A DNA stretch of 44,701 nucleotides, from assembly GCA_048940925.1 (NCBI GenBank), contig JBHLOC010000021.1:1-44701 (forward strand), written 5' to 3'. The stretch comes from Promethearchaeota archaeon. GTDB taxonomy: Archaea; Asgardarchaeota; Lokiarchaeia; Sigyniarchaeales; SOKP01. Within the stretch, counting starts at the first letter, position 1, and every line of letters begins with the position of its first letter. The position numbers and the translations under genes are program-made. Under the pieces are notes generated by a model, which saw nothing but the letters and a program-made list of their open reading frames with translations, was not told where the DNA came from and did not search any database. Positions 5,859 to 15,549 of this stretch are shown here, piece after piece.

Positions 5859-7244
5859 TTGTCTAACTTCGAACCAGATACTTATATTTTTAGAGAAAAC
5901 AACGAAAGGTATGTAGAAAGGTTTGTCGGAATTCAAGCTTTTGCTACCTATAATATGGGAGTTATAGGTGGAGAATATAAAAAGGAGTTTAAAGATTTTA
6001 TTGTCAAAGAAATTGATAATAATGGAAAAATCCTTGATATAACGGAAGATTCCAGTACTCAAGTATTTTCTAAAGAATTAAAAGATAGATATACAACTTT
6101 TAATTTGATAAAAATAAATAAAGATACATTTGAAGCAATAAGAAAGATTAGAAAAGTATTAGGCATCCCTTCTAATCTAATACACTATTCGGGTTTAAAA
6201 GATAAATTTTCAATTTCGGTTCAAAAGATATCTGTAAAAGGAGATTACATCGAACAATTAAGAAAATTGAAAGTTAAAGATATTTTCATTAGAAATATTA
6301 TTCCAACTAAAAAACCTGTTAAATTGGGAAGTCACTGGGGAAATCATTTTACAATAGTTCTAAGAAATGTAAATGATGAAATGAATTTGAGAGATAAAAT
6401 AGAAGAATATATAGAATTTTTAAATAAATTTGGATTTCCTAACTATTTTGGGCTTCAAAGATTCGGAAATTATAGACCGAATTCACATATAGTCGGTCGT
6501 TTTCTTTTAGAGGGCAACTTTCAGAAAGCATTTGAAGAATTTGTGTCAACAACATATTCTACTGAATTTAAGGAATCAAAATTGGTAAGAAGAGAGTTTC
6601 GAAAAACAAGAAATCTTGTAAAAGCATTCAATGATTTTCCAAAAAGATTGAATTATGAAAAAAACATGATTCATCATCTGATTGAAAATCCAGAAGATTA
6701 TGAAGGTAGTGTTAATACTCTACCCTCTGATTTGAAGAAGTTATTAATTAGTTCTTTTCAATCATATTTATTTAACAAAATGCTCTCAAAAAGAGTAGAA
6801 AAAGGTTTTTCATTATTTAAACCTATTGAAGGTGATGTTATTAGTATATTAGATGACTACAATGGAAATATAACACAGGTAAAATATATTTATGGGAATT
6901 CTTACGATAGGTATCTAAAGAAGGCATTACAATTAAATCGCGCTATGATAGTATTCCCTATCATTGGTACTAATACAAATTTTGATGAATTTCCATTTTC
7001 AAAATTATTATTCGATGAGATAAAAAAAGAAGAAGGTATTGATGATAACATTTTTAATAACAAGTTAGTAAATGAGCAAAAGTTTAAAGGCTCTATTAGA
7101 GCTATAATAGTAAAACCAACAGCGCTAAAAGTTTTAGAATTAGCTGATGATGGTCATAACCCTGGAAAAAAAAAAATCAAATTTGAATTTTCTCTTCAAA
7201 AAGGCACTTATGCAACGATGATGATTAGAGAGTTTATCAAATGA
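5859..7244 (+). CDS. truD: tRNA pseudouridine(13) synthase TruD/Pus7
   Basis: DFIVKEI, GLKDK, GNHFTI.LR, FPNYFG.QRFG, QSYLFN and F.L.KG.YAT motifs. Confidence 0.96.
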   Translation: MSNFEPDTYIFRENNERYVERFVGIQAFATYNMGVIGGEYKKEFKDFIVKEIDNNGKILDITEDSSTQVFSKELKDRYTTFNLIKINKDTFEAIRKIRKVLGIPSNLIHYSGLKDKFSISVQKISVKGDYIEQLRKLKVKDIFIRNIIPTKKPVKLGSHWGNHFTIVLRNVNDEMNLRDKIEEYIEFLNKFGFPNYFGLQRFGNYRPNSHIVGRFLLEGNFQKAFEEFVSTTYSTEFKESKLVRREFRKTRNLVKAFNDFPKRLNYEKNMIHHLIENPEDYEGSVNTLPSDLKKLLISSFQSYLFNKMLSKRVEKGFSLFKPIEGDVISILDDYNGNITQVKYIYGNSYDRYLKKALQLNRAMIVFPIIGTNTNFDEFPFSKLLFDEIKKEEGIDDNIFNNKLVNEQKFKGSIRAIIVKPTALKVLELADDGHNPGKKKIKFEFSLQKGTYATMMIREFIK

Positions 7245-8715
7245 TATTAATAATAAATGACTTTAAAGTTTCAATTCCAAAAATATCAATCGTTTTCACT
7301 GAAATATTATAAGTACCGCTTTCATTGTATTGATATATATCTGATATTAAAGAAAGCATCCTATTTTTGGGAGTTCTATAAGAAAACCATAAATTTCTAA
7401 ATGAATCTTTTTGGTTATTAAAGTCAATAGCCCAATAATCAATCCAATCAGAAAATGACTTTATATTATAATTAACTTTTTCTGATATCAAGTTTTTAAA
7501 CGGTATTGAGTAATTAATTAATTCTACTGAAATTTTATTATTATTTTTTTGAATCTTTACTTCAAAATAGGGATTTTCATTAATTTGGAATTCATTTTTA
7601 TTTTGAATATTTTCATTTAAAAACACACTTGGGATTGATTTTGTTTTATTGTCCTTTTCAAAACATAAGATATTGAAGGAACGGTAATCTTTATTGTATA
7701 AATTTTTCCATTTTATCATATCTTTGCTATTCTTTATGTTAAGAATTCGTTTTCTAGACATATGTATCGCGTGAGCATTTGAATCACATCCGATCCAGCG
7801 TCTTTCTAGCTTTTCAGCTACAGCTAATGTAGTGCCTGAACCACAAAAGAAATCAGCTACAATATCTTTTTCGTTTGTGGAAGCTAATATTATTCTTTTC
7901 AAAAGACGTTCTGGTTTTTGAGTAGAGAAACCCTGATATTCTGATGTATTTGCTCTGACATAAGGGATATCATTCCAAACATCCCTGGGAAAAATACCCT
8001 TTTTAGTTACATACACTTTTCTTGATAATTTTTTTCCATTATGACTCCCCCCTCTGTAATAAAATATGCCCTTTTCATCTTTCTTTAATGCATTTTTTAC
8101 TCTGTCTGAATACTCCATATAGATATTTGGATTATCATTAAAAATATAATCTTTAGATTTTGTATAAAATAGAATTACATCAAAAGATCTCATAAAAAAT
8201 CTTTTAGTACGTGCTGAGGCAGCAGGATATGCCCAGATTATTTCATTTCTAAAGTTCTCAGGACCAAACACATCATCCATGATAATTTTTATATAGTGAG
8301 AAACATGCCAATCTAAATGAATATAAATTGAACCCTTCTGAGATAGCAATTTTTTCATTAATATTAAACGATTATACATAAAATCTATATATGAATCTAA
8401 ACCTTCTTTCCATTTATCATCATAAGCTAAATCGTTTATTATTTTTTTATTATCACCTATAGGGATCTTTAGGTTATAATCTCCACCCGTTGCAAATGGA
8501 GGATCAATATATATTAAATTTATTTTTTCGGCGAAATCATCTAATAGTGAATTTAGTATTAAAAGATTATCACCGAATATCAAGAGGTTTGGCAATCCAT
8601 TTTTAGTTTTAAGCTTATCTAGTTTAGATGGAAAAATATCTTTAATAAAGAAAGGAGGTGAATTATTTAATTCCATTTTATCCTTATTCTTTCCTTTCCA
8701 GTTTAAATTTGCCAT
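7237..8715 (-). CDS. Site-specific DNA amino-methyltransferase (beta class, Type III Mod-like)
   Basis: IYIDPPF (motif IV) precedes DFFCGSGTT (motif I); TQKPE.LL.RII motif. ATG at 8715 (MANLNWKGK) preferred over the track start at 8736. Confidence 0.92.
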   Translation of the reverse strand: MANLNWKGKNKDKMELNNSPPFFIKDIFPSKLDKLKTKNGLPNLLIFGDNLLILNSLLDDFAEKINLIYIDPPFATGGDYNLKIPIGDNKKIINDLAYDDKWKEGLDSYIDFMYNRLILMKKLLSQKGSIYIHLDWHVSHYIKIIMDDVFGPENFRNEIIWAYPAASARTKRFFMRSFDVILFYTKSKDYIFNDNPNIYMEYSDRVKNALKKDEKGIFYYRGGSHNGKKLSRKVYVTKKGIFPRDVWNDIPYVRANTSEYQGFSTQKPERLLKRIILASTNEKDIVADFFCGSGTTLAVAEKLERRWIGCDSNAHAIHMSRKRILNIKNSKDMIKWKNLYNKDYRSFNILCFEKDNKTKSIPSVFLNENIQNKNEFQINENPYFEVKIQKNNNKISVELINYSIPFKNLISEKVNYNIKSFSDWIDYWAIDFNNQKDSFRNLWFSYRTPKNRMLSLISDIYQYNESGTYNISVKTIDIFGIETLKSFIINII

Positions 8716-8795
8716 AAGTAATAGATAAGAAACCAAAAGATTTTATTCTTTTTTTCCTTTTAAAAGATAATTAAGTAAGAAAATTCGTGTGATTT

Positions 8796-10137: not shown

Positions 10138-11055
10138 ATGAATAATACCTATATACAAGATTATATCAAGGCAGGAAAGGCAGTTATAGCTGCTAAAAAA
10201 TTAGCGAGAAGAATTATCAAACCAGGAGAATCCTTTTTAGAGATAGCGAATAAATGTGAAGCAGAAATTCATAAGAATGAATGCGAACTTTCATTCCCCA
10301 TCAATATGTCTTTGAATGAAATTGCTGCTCATTATAGTCCTCCGATTGATGATGATACTATAATACCAGAGAAAGGATTATTAAAAATCGATGTTGGTTC
10401 TCATTATAATGGATATATTGCAGACTCGGCATTTACAATTAATCTTGATGAAGATCCAAGACTTCAAAATTACATTGATGCAGCAAAAGAAGCTCTTGAA
10501 GCAGCAATTCAATTATTTAATCCCGGAATAAAATTATATGAACTGGGGGAAGCTATTGCTCAAAAAATTATAAATCGGGGTTTACGACCCATTACAAATT
10601 TAGGAGGTCATGAATTGAAGCAATATAATTTACACGCTGGACCTTTCATTCCAAATTATAAGGAAAAATTACATAATCAAATTTTAAAGCCTGGAGATGC
10701 ATATGCATGTGAACCTTTTACTACATCTGGTGTGGGAAAAGTAGAGAATGGGTCTCATGCATATATTTTTAGATTTGTCAAACGTGTCAAGAAAAATATC
10801 CCTTATGACTATTTAAGCTATATGAATAAAATTGAGAAAAACTTTAGACATCTTCCATTTTCACCTCGGTGGATTGTAAATAATAATCTCATACCTAAAA
10901 ATAAAATATTGAGAACTCTTGAATCTTTCATAGGAAAAAAAATTTTAGATAAGTATCCAATTTTAATAGAAAAATCTAATGAACCCGTAGCTCAAGAAGA
11001 GCATACTATTGTAATAGATATGGATGGGGAAAGGATTGTCACTACTAAAGAATAA
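10138..11055 (+). CDS. map: Methionine aminopeptidase type II
   Basis: FP.N.S.NE.AAHY, D.G.H..GYIADSA, NLGGH, EPF.T.G.G and AQ.EHT motifs. Confidence 0.96.
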   Translation: MNNTYIQDYIKAGKAVIAAKKLARRIIKPGESFLEIANKCEAEIHKNECELSFPINMSLNEIAAHYSPPIDDDTIIPEKGLLKIDVGSHYNGYIADSAFTINLDEDPRLQNYIDAAKEALEAAIQLFNPGIKLYELGEAIAQKIINRGLRPITNLGGHELKQYNLHAGPFIPNYKEKLHNQILKPGDAYACEPFTTSGVGKVENGSHAYIFRFVKRVKKNIPYDYLSYMNKIEKNFRHLPFSPRWIVNNNLIPKNKILRTLESFIGKKILDKYPILIEKSNEPVAQEEHTIVIDMDGERIVTTKE

Positions 11056-11938
11056 TTTTAAAGAAAAATTAGGTGCTATCATTTTATGTGCTGGTGAGGG
11101 GAAAAGACTTAAAAAAATAACCAAATCCTTACCAAAGCCATTAATCAAAATCGATAAACTAAATAAGATTCCGATTATCAATCATATTCTCAATAACTTA
11201 ATCGATTTGGAAATAAATCATATAGCAGTTGTTATAGGTTATTTAGGAGACACTATTCGAAAGGCTATTTCATCTTTAAAAAAATCTAATAATTTTTCAC
11301 AAATAAATGTGGTAGTAATTGATGCTAAGAATCAATATAAATTAGGTCCTCTTTACTCTTTTTTATCTATTACTAAGAACAAGAGTTTCTTCTCGAGTAA
11401 CTATTATTATATAGTAATTCCAGGGGATACTGTTTTTGATAAGGATATATTAAAAGAAATTTTAGACTTATTATCTAAAAATTATAATTTAATTCACGAT
11501 TCTCCATTTATTTTTTATAGAAATATAAAATTAAAGGTATTAAAACAAATATATAAAAAAAGTAGACTAGTTTCTATTGCTGAACTCATAAAAGTTGATT
11601 CAAACGTTGTATTAAAAAGAATTTCTCAAGTAAAAATAAAAGATATTATTTCTAGTGATGAAATTAATCAAATCATTCCAATTTTCACTTTTAATTATAA
11701 TTTTATTCAAGAAATCTTAGCTCTGTCTGATCATATACATTTAAAGACGATTTGGGAAACATTTAATTATATGATTGATAATAGTAGAAAAATATATGCT
11801 TTTAAGATAAATTCTAATAAACAATTTTATGACATTGATAGTAAGGATGATTTGAAAAATTTAAAAAAAAAAGAAAGGACAATAGGCGCTCCGATTAATC
11901 AAAGTGTAATTGATTCAAAAGGACTTAAAAAAGTATAA
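11024..11938 (+). CDS. Sugar-phosphate/NTP nucleotidyltransferase family protein
   Basis: AIILCAGEGKRL...T...PKPL N-terminal signature; PGD and DID motifs. Confidence 0.85.
   Translation: MGKGLSLLKNNFKEKLGAIILCAGEGKRLKKITKSLPKPLIKIDKLNKIPIINHILNNLIDLEINHIAVVIGYLGDTIRKAISSLKKSNNFSQINVVVIDAKNQYKLGPLYSFLSITKNKSFFSSNYYYIVIPGDTVFDKDILKEILDLLSKNYNLIHDSPFIFYRNIKLKVLKQIYKKSRLVSIAELIKVDSNVVLKRISQVKIKDIISSDEINQIIPIFTFNYNFIQEILALSDHIHLKTIWETFNYMIDNSRKIYAFKINSNKQFYDIDSKDDLKNLKKKERTIGAPINQSVIDSKGLKKV
11863..11876 (-). terminator. Oligo-T tract immediately 3' of the candidate ncRNA
   Basis: Minus strand TTTCTTTTTTTTTT directly follows the closing stem. It also encodes poly-Lys on the plus strand. Confidence 0.55.
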
Positions 11939-12381
11939 TCCTAAGAAGCAATTAGGCAATCAAAGCTCCTATTTTTTACAGAAAATATGTTCTTACTGTT
12001 TTTATGTCTCGTGTATCAAAAAAACAACAACACATAATCAGAAGAACTTAAATTATCCATGTAACATGGTCTCTTTTATAAATGATGTATAGATTAAATT
12101 GTGAAATTGATAACAGATCTCCATTTTAATTCCGAAGTGATAACTTTCTGCTAGTTTGCCAGAAGTTCTGTTAAAACTTAAGCTTCTGTACTTTGATGTT
12201 TAACACTACAGGAAAATTGGGAATCAAATTCAGTATATATATTGGGATAGTCCTAATTGACTTGAAATCAAAAATAAAAAAATATCGGAAAAACGGAACA
12301 AATTTATATAAGTATATAATTGAATCGGTGGTTAAACCGCAATTATGTATCTAATTCCAATGCAATATTTACCTATTGTCC
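11877..12381 (-). ncRNA. Large (~505 nt) structured non-coding RNA of unrecognised family
   Basis: Perfect 10-bp terminal stem GGACAATAGG/CCTATTGTCC, a series of correctly nested long-range helices, TATA box 23 nt upstream and a T-tract downstream; no credible ORF. Confidence 0.75.
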
Positions 12382-12404: not shown

Positions 12405-12419
12405 TATTTAAATCTTGTT
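12405..12419 (-). promoter_or_regulatory. BRE/TATA promoter of the candidate ncRNA
   Basis: Minus strand AACAAGA-TTTAAATA ends 23 nt before the first G of the terminal stem, which is canonical archaeal spacing. Confidence 0.6.
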
Positions 12420-12525
12420 ATTAAGATAAATAATATATTTATTGATTTTTTTAACAAATATTTAATGAACTAAAAGATTAATTGAAGATAAAATAAAGAT
12501 TAATACTCAAATTGTATTTGATAAG

Positions 12526-12915
12526 ATGAATGATACAGGTTTAGTACCAATAAAAATTGAATTGTTTGGAGTGGGAATATTAGAGGGTCACATCATCAGA
12601 CATATTGCTCCACTTTCTGCTGATGCGATAATTGATAAAATACCCTTCGTGCTGAGAGGTAGATTTAGTTTTGGGACAAAAAAATATTGGACGCTTCCGG
12701 GATTAGAATTATATAAAGGGCTTAATCCCAAATCTACTAATCTTGTAGAAAAAGGGGATATTGTCTATAATCCAAAAACAGATGAGTTAATAATATTATT
12801 GGAAAATCTGCAAATGTCAAATAAAATGAATAAGGTAGGAAAAGTTACTGCAAATTTAGAATTACTACTAAAGGCAAACAATGGATTGAATACAAAAATA
12901 ACTAAGAGAAAATAA
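12526..12915 (+). CDS. Cyclophilin-like fold protein
   Basis: R..APLS...I...IP, VEKGDIVY.P...L.I and NKVGKV pattern of small archaeal cyclophilin-like proteins. Confidence 0.65.
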   Translation: MNDTGLVPIKIELFGVGILEGHIIRHIAPLSADAIIDKIPFVLRGRFSFGTKKYWTLPGLELYKGLNPKSTNLVEKGDIVYNPKTDELIILLENLQMSNKMNKVGKVTANLELLLKANNGLNTKITKRK

Positions 12916-13935: not shown

Positions 13936-14262
13936 TTACGAATACGATTTAGTTTGGAGCGTGATTGCTATATTGGAAACTATATCTATTTTTTTTTTGG
14001 TATTTCGAAAATTTCGGTTATTACGCCCACGTTGATTATCTTTAAAATAAGGACGGCTTCCCAAGGAAACATTTGTAATTTCTAGTCTAGGATACATACG
14101 GTTTTTTAGAATTTCTGCAACTTCCACCGCTGTACTTATTTCATTACCTTCACCCTTTATCATAAGGGATTTCTTACCACCTGAAAAAGCAAAAATGGCG
14201 TCTTTTATTGATTTATCTTTGTCATTACGGTTTCTTATTACAATTGTAGTTTCATTAACCAT
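13936..14262 (-). CDS. Alba-superfamily nucleic acid-binding protein (divergent)
   Basis: IKG.G..ISTAVEVAEILK.R...I..V.LGS...VS.I.I.L Alba signature; GAGGT SD upstream. Confidence 0.8.
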   Translation of the reverse strand: MVNETTIVIRNRNDKDKSIKDAIFAFSGGKKSLMIKGEGNEISTAVEVAEILKNRMYPRLEITNVSLGSRPYFKDNQRGRNNRNFRNTKKKIDIVSNIAITLQTKSYS

Positions 14263-14421: not shown

Positions 14422-15549
14422 TCAGAAATCTTCTAGATTTAATTCGGCTCGTTGATTTAGATCATGCAAGATTTTATAATATTCAGAACTTCTCTGTTCA
14501 AAATATTCAATTATTTTTCTTTCATTTGTGTCTAAATAATCAAAATAAGGAGATATAACTTCTATTCTCTCTGAAAAATCTTCCATAAGCTTATCATACC
14601 ACTCATTAGGTTTCTCTAACATATTGTATAATTTCTTAGATAATTTCTGTTTTTTTAACGTATATTCTTTTGTTTTTTTCTCGTGAAATAATTTATCTAG
14701 TTGATCATATGCATTAGATATAGATTTTTCAACTTTTTCTCTGAATTTTGGAATTCTAAATGTTTTTTTATAGAAATCAGGATCCCATTCATATAAGTAA
14801 TGTTCATCTACCTCAGCTTCATCTAAATTATCAGTAACTATTATATCTTCTTTTGGAACGAGTATTAAACCATAATTCCTCTGAAGCTGAGCTAATGCTT
14901 TTTTCCTGAGCACCTCATCTATATAATCTAATTCTTTTAGAACTCTATCTATATCTTTATTCATTTTTTTAATAACATTATCAACTTTTTCAACCATTTT
15001 CTTTTTATCATATTCATATTTTAAATCTATTAGATTATAAGTAGAACTCAATCCTAAGGTGGGGTCTTTCAGTCTTAATCCTGCTATTCCTAAGAAATGT
15101 TCATTAGATCCTTTTTCACAGTGATCAAAAATCAACCCTACTGCAAAAGGATTTGGGATCTGATAACCTAAATGAGTTAAATGATCTATAGGTGAGTAAA
15201 AAAATCCAAATCCCGGATGAGTATGCCACCATCCAATGATAAAATCCTTTCGCTTATCCTGAATTGATCTTTCGAAAACAGAAGCATCAATTTGAGCCAT
15301 ATCCACATATTGTTTACTTTCATATTTAACACCAGCTCTATCCCCTACAACCATGGGAATCGCATCCTTTACAACAACTTCAGAATTGGCTTCTATCGAA
15401 CCAACTAAAATGCCATATACTTCTCGCCATTTACCAGAACTTATATTATTATTCGCATATCTTATCGCATAACCCACGATTCTTCTATAAGCTTTTAGTG
15501 TGAGTAGAACTGGTGTTTTAAATAGACTTAACTTTTTGTTTTTCCCCAT
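14422..15549 (-). CDS. JAB1/MPN (JAMM) metalloisopeptidase-domain protein with helical C-terminal extension
   Basis: EVYG.L.G and IIGWWHTHPGFGFFYSPID (intact E...HxH-x7-S-x2-D). Confidence 0.88.
   Translation of the reverse strand: MGKNKKLSLFKTPVLLTLKAYRRIVGYAIRYANNNISSGKWREVYGILVGSIEANSEVVVKDAIPMVVGDRAGVKYESKQYVDMAQIDASVFERSIQDKRKDFIIGWWHTHPGFGFFYSPIDHLTHLGYQIPNPFAVGLIFDHCEKGSNEHFLGIAGLRLKDPTLGLSSTYNLIDLKYEYDKKKMVEKVDNVIKKMNKDIDRVLKELDYIDEVLRKKALAQLQRNYGLILVPKEDIIVTDNLDEAEVDEHYLYEWDPDFYKKTFRIPKFREKVEKSISNAYDQLDKLFHEKKTKEYTLKKQKLSKKLYNMLEKPNEWYDKLMEDFSERIEVISPYFDYLDTNERKIIEYFEQRSSEYYKILHDLNQRAELNLEDF

Follow-up and report, generated by a model that had tools for sequence, protein, structure and literature searches.

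A non-coding RNA family, so far undescribed and apparently limited to one family of Lokiarchaeia

Comparative evidence supports the presence of a separate non-coding RNA gene, complete with a promoter and a terminator of its own, on the minus strand of a Lokiarchaeia (Promethearchaeota) genome (G000), at positions 12381–11877 (505 nt) of the window analyzed here (the whole stretch of 44,701 nt; G000:C73:1-44701). The gene occupies an otherwise gene-free gap and appears to belong to an undescribed RNA family limited to one Lokiarchaeia family, which is considered real. That the locus gives rise to a transcribed and functional RNA is very probable. If it does, the chances that the RNA acts as a scaffold or decoy for proteins are about even, and lower for SmAP specifically; overall, a stand-alone ncRNA serving as the scaffold or decoy of an RNP particle is the best explanation, held with slightly less than even confidence. 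The RNA is single-copy in the genome, and the longest ORF on its sense strand (23 aa) shows no conservation across homologues. Its G+C content (29%; 28% for the A+U-rich interior) equals the genome average; that of the RNase P RNA is 46%.

The gene is delimited by a promoter, a terminal helix and a U-tract (Table 1), from which its ends were inferred rather than mapped. In archaea, the order of BRE and TATA box sets the direction of transcription, which is that of the minus strand here. Among the homologues described below, the TATA box lies ∼22–25 nt before the stem, and the combination of TATA box and GCAUUGG box occurs nowhere else in the genome. The original prediction had proposed an independent minus-strand ncRNA with a TATA box upstream and a U-tract downstream; both elements are present, and the gene as such was upheld by comparison of homologues. 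Termination at U-tracts by aCPSF1 has been demonstrated also with the Lokiarchaeum enzyme (PMC8716108).

Table 1. Features of the RNA gene and of its two neighbors (positions in the window).
Feature	Position	Strand	Remarks
BRE-like purine-rich element	12413..12420	-	abuts TATA box upstream; its A-rich columns do not vary in alignments A1 and A3
TATA box	12405..12412	-	23 nt ahead of G12381, with which the closing stem starts
Closing stem P1, 5′ strand	12372..12381	-	pair probability 1.0; compensatory changes at positions 1, 2, 4, 6
GCAUUGG box	12357..12363	-	12–23 nt from 5′ end; 81/83 homologues (invariance inflated by search patterns, see text)
Small hairpin	12326..12339	-	core of the originally predicted hairpin 12316–12346; 90.7% of cells paired in A1
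Internal oligo(U) run	12269..12282	-	candidate Sm-like (SmAP) site or internal terminator
Middle arm	12130..12214	-	two short helices round an internal loop (12214–12204 with 12139–12130); variable tip
Hairpin arm with GAGAC motif and second U-run	11989..12047	-	probability 0.99
3′ arm	11888..11972	-	9-bp helix 11966–58/11896–88 and two interrupted helices above; probability 0.76
Closing stem P1, 3′ strand	11877..11886	-	pair probability 1.0; covariation
Terminal U-tract	11863..11876	-	archaeal terminator type
NTP-transferase-family gene	11024..11938	+	Pfam PF00483; convergent neighbor
Cyclophilin-like gene	12526..12915	+	weak PF18050; divergent neighbor

Both strands of P1 pair perfectly over 10 bp, and double changes across the homologues convert G-C to A-U (positions 1 and 2), C-G to U-A (position 4) and A-U to U-A (position 6). 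Thirteen further changes from C-G to U-G at position 4 are wobbles compatible with the minus strand only, which agrees with the orientation of the promoter. The extensions of P1 at both ends are likewise matched and covarying among homologues. Syntenic intervals collected across one family of Lokiarchaeia contain homologues at the same locus with a covarying closing stem; covarying structure in syntenic homologues, the mark of a functional ncRNA gene, was thus found for the closing stem and in weaker form for the internal arms.

The interior is best described as a set of local arms of lineage-specific length on a predicted multibranch hub, a plan that genus-level consensus folds repeat and for which covariation in the internal arms is weak. 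The helices of the middle arm, which recurs in these folds, are paired in 78.7% and 89.6%, with one double change each, and the 3′ arm is paired in 93%, with one-sided G-U changes and few double changes, all of these values having been scored on the same sequences from which the structure was derived. The GAGAC motif is kept in several genera (g1, g2 and others), and the register of its hairpin arm varies by genus. RNAalifold, when applied to the mixed alignment, resolved the 3′ helix alone. A different architecture had been predicted originally, namely a nested long rod with a three-branched head recalling SRP RNA. All ten arm pairs listed for it are complementary, and in four of them G-U pairs on the minus strand correspond to mismatches on the plus strand. 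However, the six long-range helices of the rod have ensemble probabilities of only 0.00–0.06 on the minus strand and keep 58.6% of their pairs across 24 homologues, compared with 91.0% for the local arms, on which grounds the SRP-like rod was rejected as unsupported; one of its helices (12213–08/11972–67), with 80% of pairs kept, is a possible alternative pairing. Ensemble probabilities on the minus strand were 0.62 for the hairpin at 12057–69 and 0.55 for the 5′ hairpin. Nor was the term "highly structured" supported, if it is to mean an RNA rich in G+C and under tight constraint. The RNA folds with z-scores of −2.8 (minus strand) and −3.6 (plus strand), none of 100 shuffled sequences being equally stable, and of 30 long gene-free gaps picked at random from the same genome, 6 reach z ≤ −2.6, which makes its folding only moderately unusual. 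Because so many gaps come this close and because the G+C content is average, folding energy alone proves little, and the case rests on comparison.

For this comparison, 83 distinct homologous RNAs of 357–790 nt (median 488 nt) were available from 11 genera of one Lokiarchaeia family; genera g8 and g10 are outside the set, and the homologues from g7 were added by pattern search. BLAST matches were obtained in 59 of 100 family genomes and were best at both ends of the RNA. The 3′ arm, cast as a covariance model (R1), was recognized in 85 of 126 genomes of the family and in none of 24 genomes from other families of the class. With a model built on the 5′ end, 24 of 25 family relatives matched over the full length, and 125 other Asgard genomes gave only weak, partial, promoter-like matches (E ≥ 7.8e-4). 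In six genera chosen by synteny or by promoter-only matches (g3, g4, g5, g9, g11 and g12), the interior is unalignable, yet these loci retain the TATA box, the GCAUUGG box, both strands of the stem and the U-tract in position. When 185,579 species genomes were scanned for the combination of promoter, stem and box, 71 matches resulted, 65 of them archaeal and beside the same genes. The remaining six were bacterial and lacked synteny (five also lacked a stem partner and one lay at a contig end), two viral pattern matches were attributable to chance, and other matches outside the family were located inside ORFs or had no stem partner. The map/NTP-transferase neighborhood in four genomes of other families contained no candidate RNA. 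No homologue was found outside the family among the genomes searched, which include the family apparently holding the cultured Promethearchaeum, by searches that are blind to homologues whose stem and box differ from these. The "Asgard ncRNA class" proposed originally is correct in that the RNA is from Asgard archaea (Lokiarchaeia) and uncatalogued, and too broad in that detection was confined to a single family. One version of 790 nt (L092; G070:C5) has a weak terminal U-tract and possibly carries an insertion. Nine records with the locus and with Lokiarchaeia-level protein identity (L163, L164, L178, L181, L198, L201, L204, L205 and L207) are titled Odin-, Hermod-, Hod- or Thorarchaeota, which look like mislabels.

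The gene order map, NTP-transferase gene, RNA (on the opposite strand), cyclophilin-like gene and VTT gene is kept, and synteny held in every archaeal locus examined. In the window, the last 62 nt of the NTP-transferase ORF are antisense to the last 62 nt of the RNA, a point absent from the original prediction; among homologues, this overlap ranges from −230 to +67 nt. Genus g4 has lost the NTP-transferase gene and genus g7 lacks the cyclophilin-like gene beside the RNA, and in both the RNA is retained. As each neighbor can be lost without the RNA and the overlap is variable, the RNA is tied to neither, and neither is required for its function. No sense-strand gene open to attenuation follows the RNA. 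In ∼20 homologues, mostly from g2 (L028, L031, L032, L068–L072, L081 and others), the convergent NTP-transferase gene takes its stop codon, TAG, from the complement of the 3′ strand of the stem, with this stop lying 9 nt within the RNA. Other genes in the window include one for an Alba-domain protein with an Arg/Asn-rich stretch (13936–14262, minus strand), two genes away from the RNA, one for a JAB/MPN-domain protein whose C-terminal part is long and helical (14422–15549, minus strand), and an N6/N4 DNA methylase gene (7237–8736, minus strand), which is flanked by truD and an aspartyl-tRNA-synthetase-like gene and lies on the strand opposite to them.

The near invariance of the GCAUUGG box is inflated by the fact that homologues were excised with patterns containing conserved letters, a bias which the synteny-only loci lessen but do not remove. 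The base following the box is A in 43 and U in 38 homologues. No conserved internal partner of the box was found, its best internal duplex (−8.2 kcal/mol) being close to that of shuffled sequences (−8.0 kcal/mol), and predicted folds leave it no more open than average. A hairpin displaying the box in its loop was unsupported (−0.82 kcal/mol with its own flanks vs. −0.62 kcal/mol with swapped flanks), and pairing with the CCRAY letters ahead of the U-run was inconsistent across genera. No conserved target of the box was detected in LSU, SSU, SRP, RNase P or tRNA sequences, the 16S sequences of the family being incomplete. Its complement is not enriched in the genome (286 observed vs. 261 expected), nor is it at start codons; the best promoter-linked non-coding site, a perfect 10-nt complement on contig C74, lies antisense to a protein gene, and the genome has 16 such complements in all. 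The sequence is kept without a covarying partner or a conserved RNA target, as would be expected of a protein site. Two g1 genomes (L018 in G059 and L026 in G069; RNAs of 391 and 357 nt) have lost the box together with much of the 5′ domain and have kept the promoter, the stem and the 3′ arm; the box is therefore not strictly indispensable. In several homologues from g4 (L075, L083 and L087) and g9 (L089–L091 and L108), it can pair over 8–11 bp with a segment 23–44 nt from the 3′ end, which would lengthen the closing stem and was observed in no other genus.

The other fixed element of the interior is the oligo(U) run. A strand-specific run of at least U6 is found at +72 to +95 from the box in 61 of 81 homologues, compared with 0 for A-runs, 3.5 for shuffled sequences and 5.4 for other windows. 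Such a position-conserved U-run is what would be expected of an Sm/SmAP-bound RNP, although several distant genera lack it: the run occurs in g1, g2, g3, g4 and g6, and the 20 homologues without it at this position include the representatives of g5, g7, g9, g11 and g12. Commonly, the run forms the loop of a short hairpin. Three LSm/SmAP genes (C40:48209, C85:26597 and C18:46847) score above the Pfam cut-off in G000, which says little, as many archaea have such genes. U-rich single strands of RNA are ligands of SmAP rings (PMC3710371). The run in this genome reads U7-A-U5 and thus has two tracts that each reach the U4 minimum for aCPSF1 binding (PMC8716108).

A locus of this kind could also be the relic of a MITE-like element with terminal inverted repeats, or could act as DNA only (operator, shared terminator), which is very improbable. 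The 10-bp terminal inverted repeat, the average G+C content, a folding z-score unexceptional among long gaps and the stem 3′ strand doubling as the stop codon of the neighbor in many g2 genomes would all agree with such a reading; the locus is nevertheless a single copy at the same place over 11 genera, its flanks differ with no target-site duplication, and dispersed copies, which had been named as evidence for a MITE, were not found. Moreover, the G-U wobbles make sense only in a one-strand RNA, and the combination of TATA box and GCAUUGG box is unique in the genome. Still less probable, and already largely refuted, is an extremely diverged paralogue of SRP, RNase P/MRP, tmRNA, Y, telomerase or retron RNA. 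A closing stem with a U-tail is common to several such RNAs, and some homologues end in ACC ahead of the U-tract; against this, Rfam gave no match at the gathering threshold and no E-value below 1.3. The original prediction had left room for an extremely diverged known RNP RNA, but SRP RNA and RNase P RNA each have a locus of their own elsewhere in the genome: a canonical RNase P RNA (RF00373; G000:C41:65126-65448, 132 bits) and an SRP S-domain with the helix-8 motif (G000:C37:14256-14371, L002:1501-1616; 43 bits, below the gathering score). At the locus itself, neither a match to RF01857 nor the SRP54 site of helix 8 was found, and neither a match to RF00373 nor, among the conserved columns, CR-I and CR-V of the P4 pseudoknot. 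ARAGORN detected no tRNA or tmRNA in the window, and neither a SmpB gene nor a conserved ORF was found. A Y RNA was rejected, as the genome, rated 100% complete, has no match to TROVE/Ro60 (PF05731) and the closing stem is unbulged; a template RNA of the retron or telomerase type was rejected as well, with no match to reverse transcriptase (RVT_1, PF00078), no tandem copies of the box complement and no template-like tandem repeats. In a tRNA-like reading of the ends as D-loop and T-loop, the spacing fits some g2 copies, and the T-stem does not form and the discriminator position is unconserved. A strict scan for BHB introns gave 0.125 per RNA vs. 0.156 in shuffled sequences, none being conserved, and the covariance models of OLE, ROOL, GOLLD and raiA in Rfam had no match. 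The SRP RNA of this genome matches RF01857 over the S-domain only. Despite the completeness rating, its 16S rRNA is not assembled and its 23S rRNA is represented by the 5′ half only. No description of the RNA was found in the literature on Asgard and Lokiarchaeia ncRNAs, a search outside of which most subscription papers fell.

If the locus encodes a functional RNA, it could work by base pairing rather than as a scaffold. As a trans-acting guide or sponge, it would use the GCAUUGG box as a seed for another RNA and SmAP as an Hfq-like chaperone, and the presence of U-runs and SmAP genes, together with a short, invariant, 5′-proximal box that lacks a conserved partner within the RNA, is consistent with this; the lack of a conserved site in the stable RNAs, the unenriched complement and the antisense position of its top promoter-linked non-coding occurrence argue against it, a 7-nt seed being hard to test, and a guide or sponge is regarded as unlikely. 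Quite improbable is an oligomer made of RNA alone, like those of OLE, ROOL and GOLLD, in which kissing loops would join the molecules and the box would serve as a contact between them. Size and orphan status are alike (PMC12286853), and the box overlaps the 4-nt palindrome UGCA in 72 of 81 homologues; that palindrome is short and not invariant, however, and an interior of such low G+C content, variable in length and unalignable between genera, is a poor fit to an ornate, conserved tertiary fold. The chances are similarly poor that the internal U-run is a regulated terminator, a short (∼105 nt) form coexisting with the long one, or that the RNA is a decoy for aCPSF1. The fixed position of the run and its two tracts of sufficient length would suit both, but the conserved closing stem demands read-through to full length, no following gene would be attenuated, and the run often lies within a hairpin loop.

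What favors an RNP scaffold over these readings is the occurrence of fixed short elements among freely changing arms. The paired ends, the 7-base box and the constant spacing of the U-run all hint at a particle with bound protein. Transcription would proceed from about 12381 to the U-tract, and the closing stem would then shield both ends and bring the box beside the 3′ end, where a sequence-specific protein may read it. A SmAP ring could load on the internal U-run ∼80 nt beyond the box and, once loaded, prevent termination there; the variable arms would serve as spacers or as lineage-specific docking sites. A candidate job of the particle is the storage or titration of a protein, in the manner of 7SK or 6S-type RNAs. 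More specifically, an Sm-ring-bound, snRNP- or 7SK-like particle core in Lokiarchaeia, built on a large, lncRNA-like, single-copy scaffold with a protein-read box at its base, is conceivable and rather doubtful. If true, this would be an RNP without a described counterpart in archaea, with a bearing on the origin of eukaryotic Sm RNPs. The box, the U-run and the three SmAP paralogues are concrete objects for tests. The finding reaches no further than one family, apparently not that of the cultured Promethearchaeum; genetics is therefore not feasible at present, and a connection with the origin of eukaryotes is unsupported.

To our knowledge, few large stand-alone ncRNAs are known from archaea beyond rRNA, SRP RNA and RNase P RNA. 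With archaeal SRP RNA (RF01857), the Lokiarchaeia RNA shares a closing helix joining the ends, but it lacks the helix-8 motif and a conserved rod topology; with archaeal RNase P RNA (RF00373), it shares a 10-bp closing P1 and a multibranch plan, but lacks CR-I/CR-V. OLE, ROOL and GOLLD (PMC12286853) and the raiA motif (PMC12968392) are likewise large, non-coding, found by comparison and open as to function, and are transcribed independently; in contrast to them, the RNA described here is archaeal, A+U-rich, without a match in Rfam, and fixed only in its ends, box and U-run. RNPs bound by Sm or LSm proteins, that is, snRNPs and SmAP-bound archaeal RNAs (PMC3710371), likewise have a single-stranded U-run at a conserved position between structured parts, and SmAP genes are present here. 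The Lokiarchaeia run, a candidate site, varies in contrast from U6 to U12 with loose flanks, has no strict Sm consensus and belongs to an RNA without snRNA homology. We know of no spliceosome in archaea. The 7SK, Y and vault RNAs have paired 5′ and 3′ ends, a U-tail, short protein-recognition elements at the base and a variable interior. By description and by Rfam, the only means of comparison used, the Lokiarchaeia RNA is like them in its paired ends, U-tail, short conserved basal elements and variable interior, but it has no Rfam similarity to them, no Ro60/TROVE gene was found in the genome, and its closing stem lacks the bulged-C helix of Ro60 ligands. As a one-copy RNA of 350–800 nt kept across an Asgard family with fixed ends and a fast-changing interior, it resembles eukaryotic scaffold RNAs more than the ornate RNAs of bacteria.
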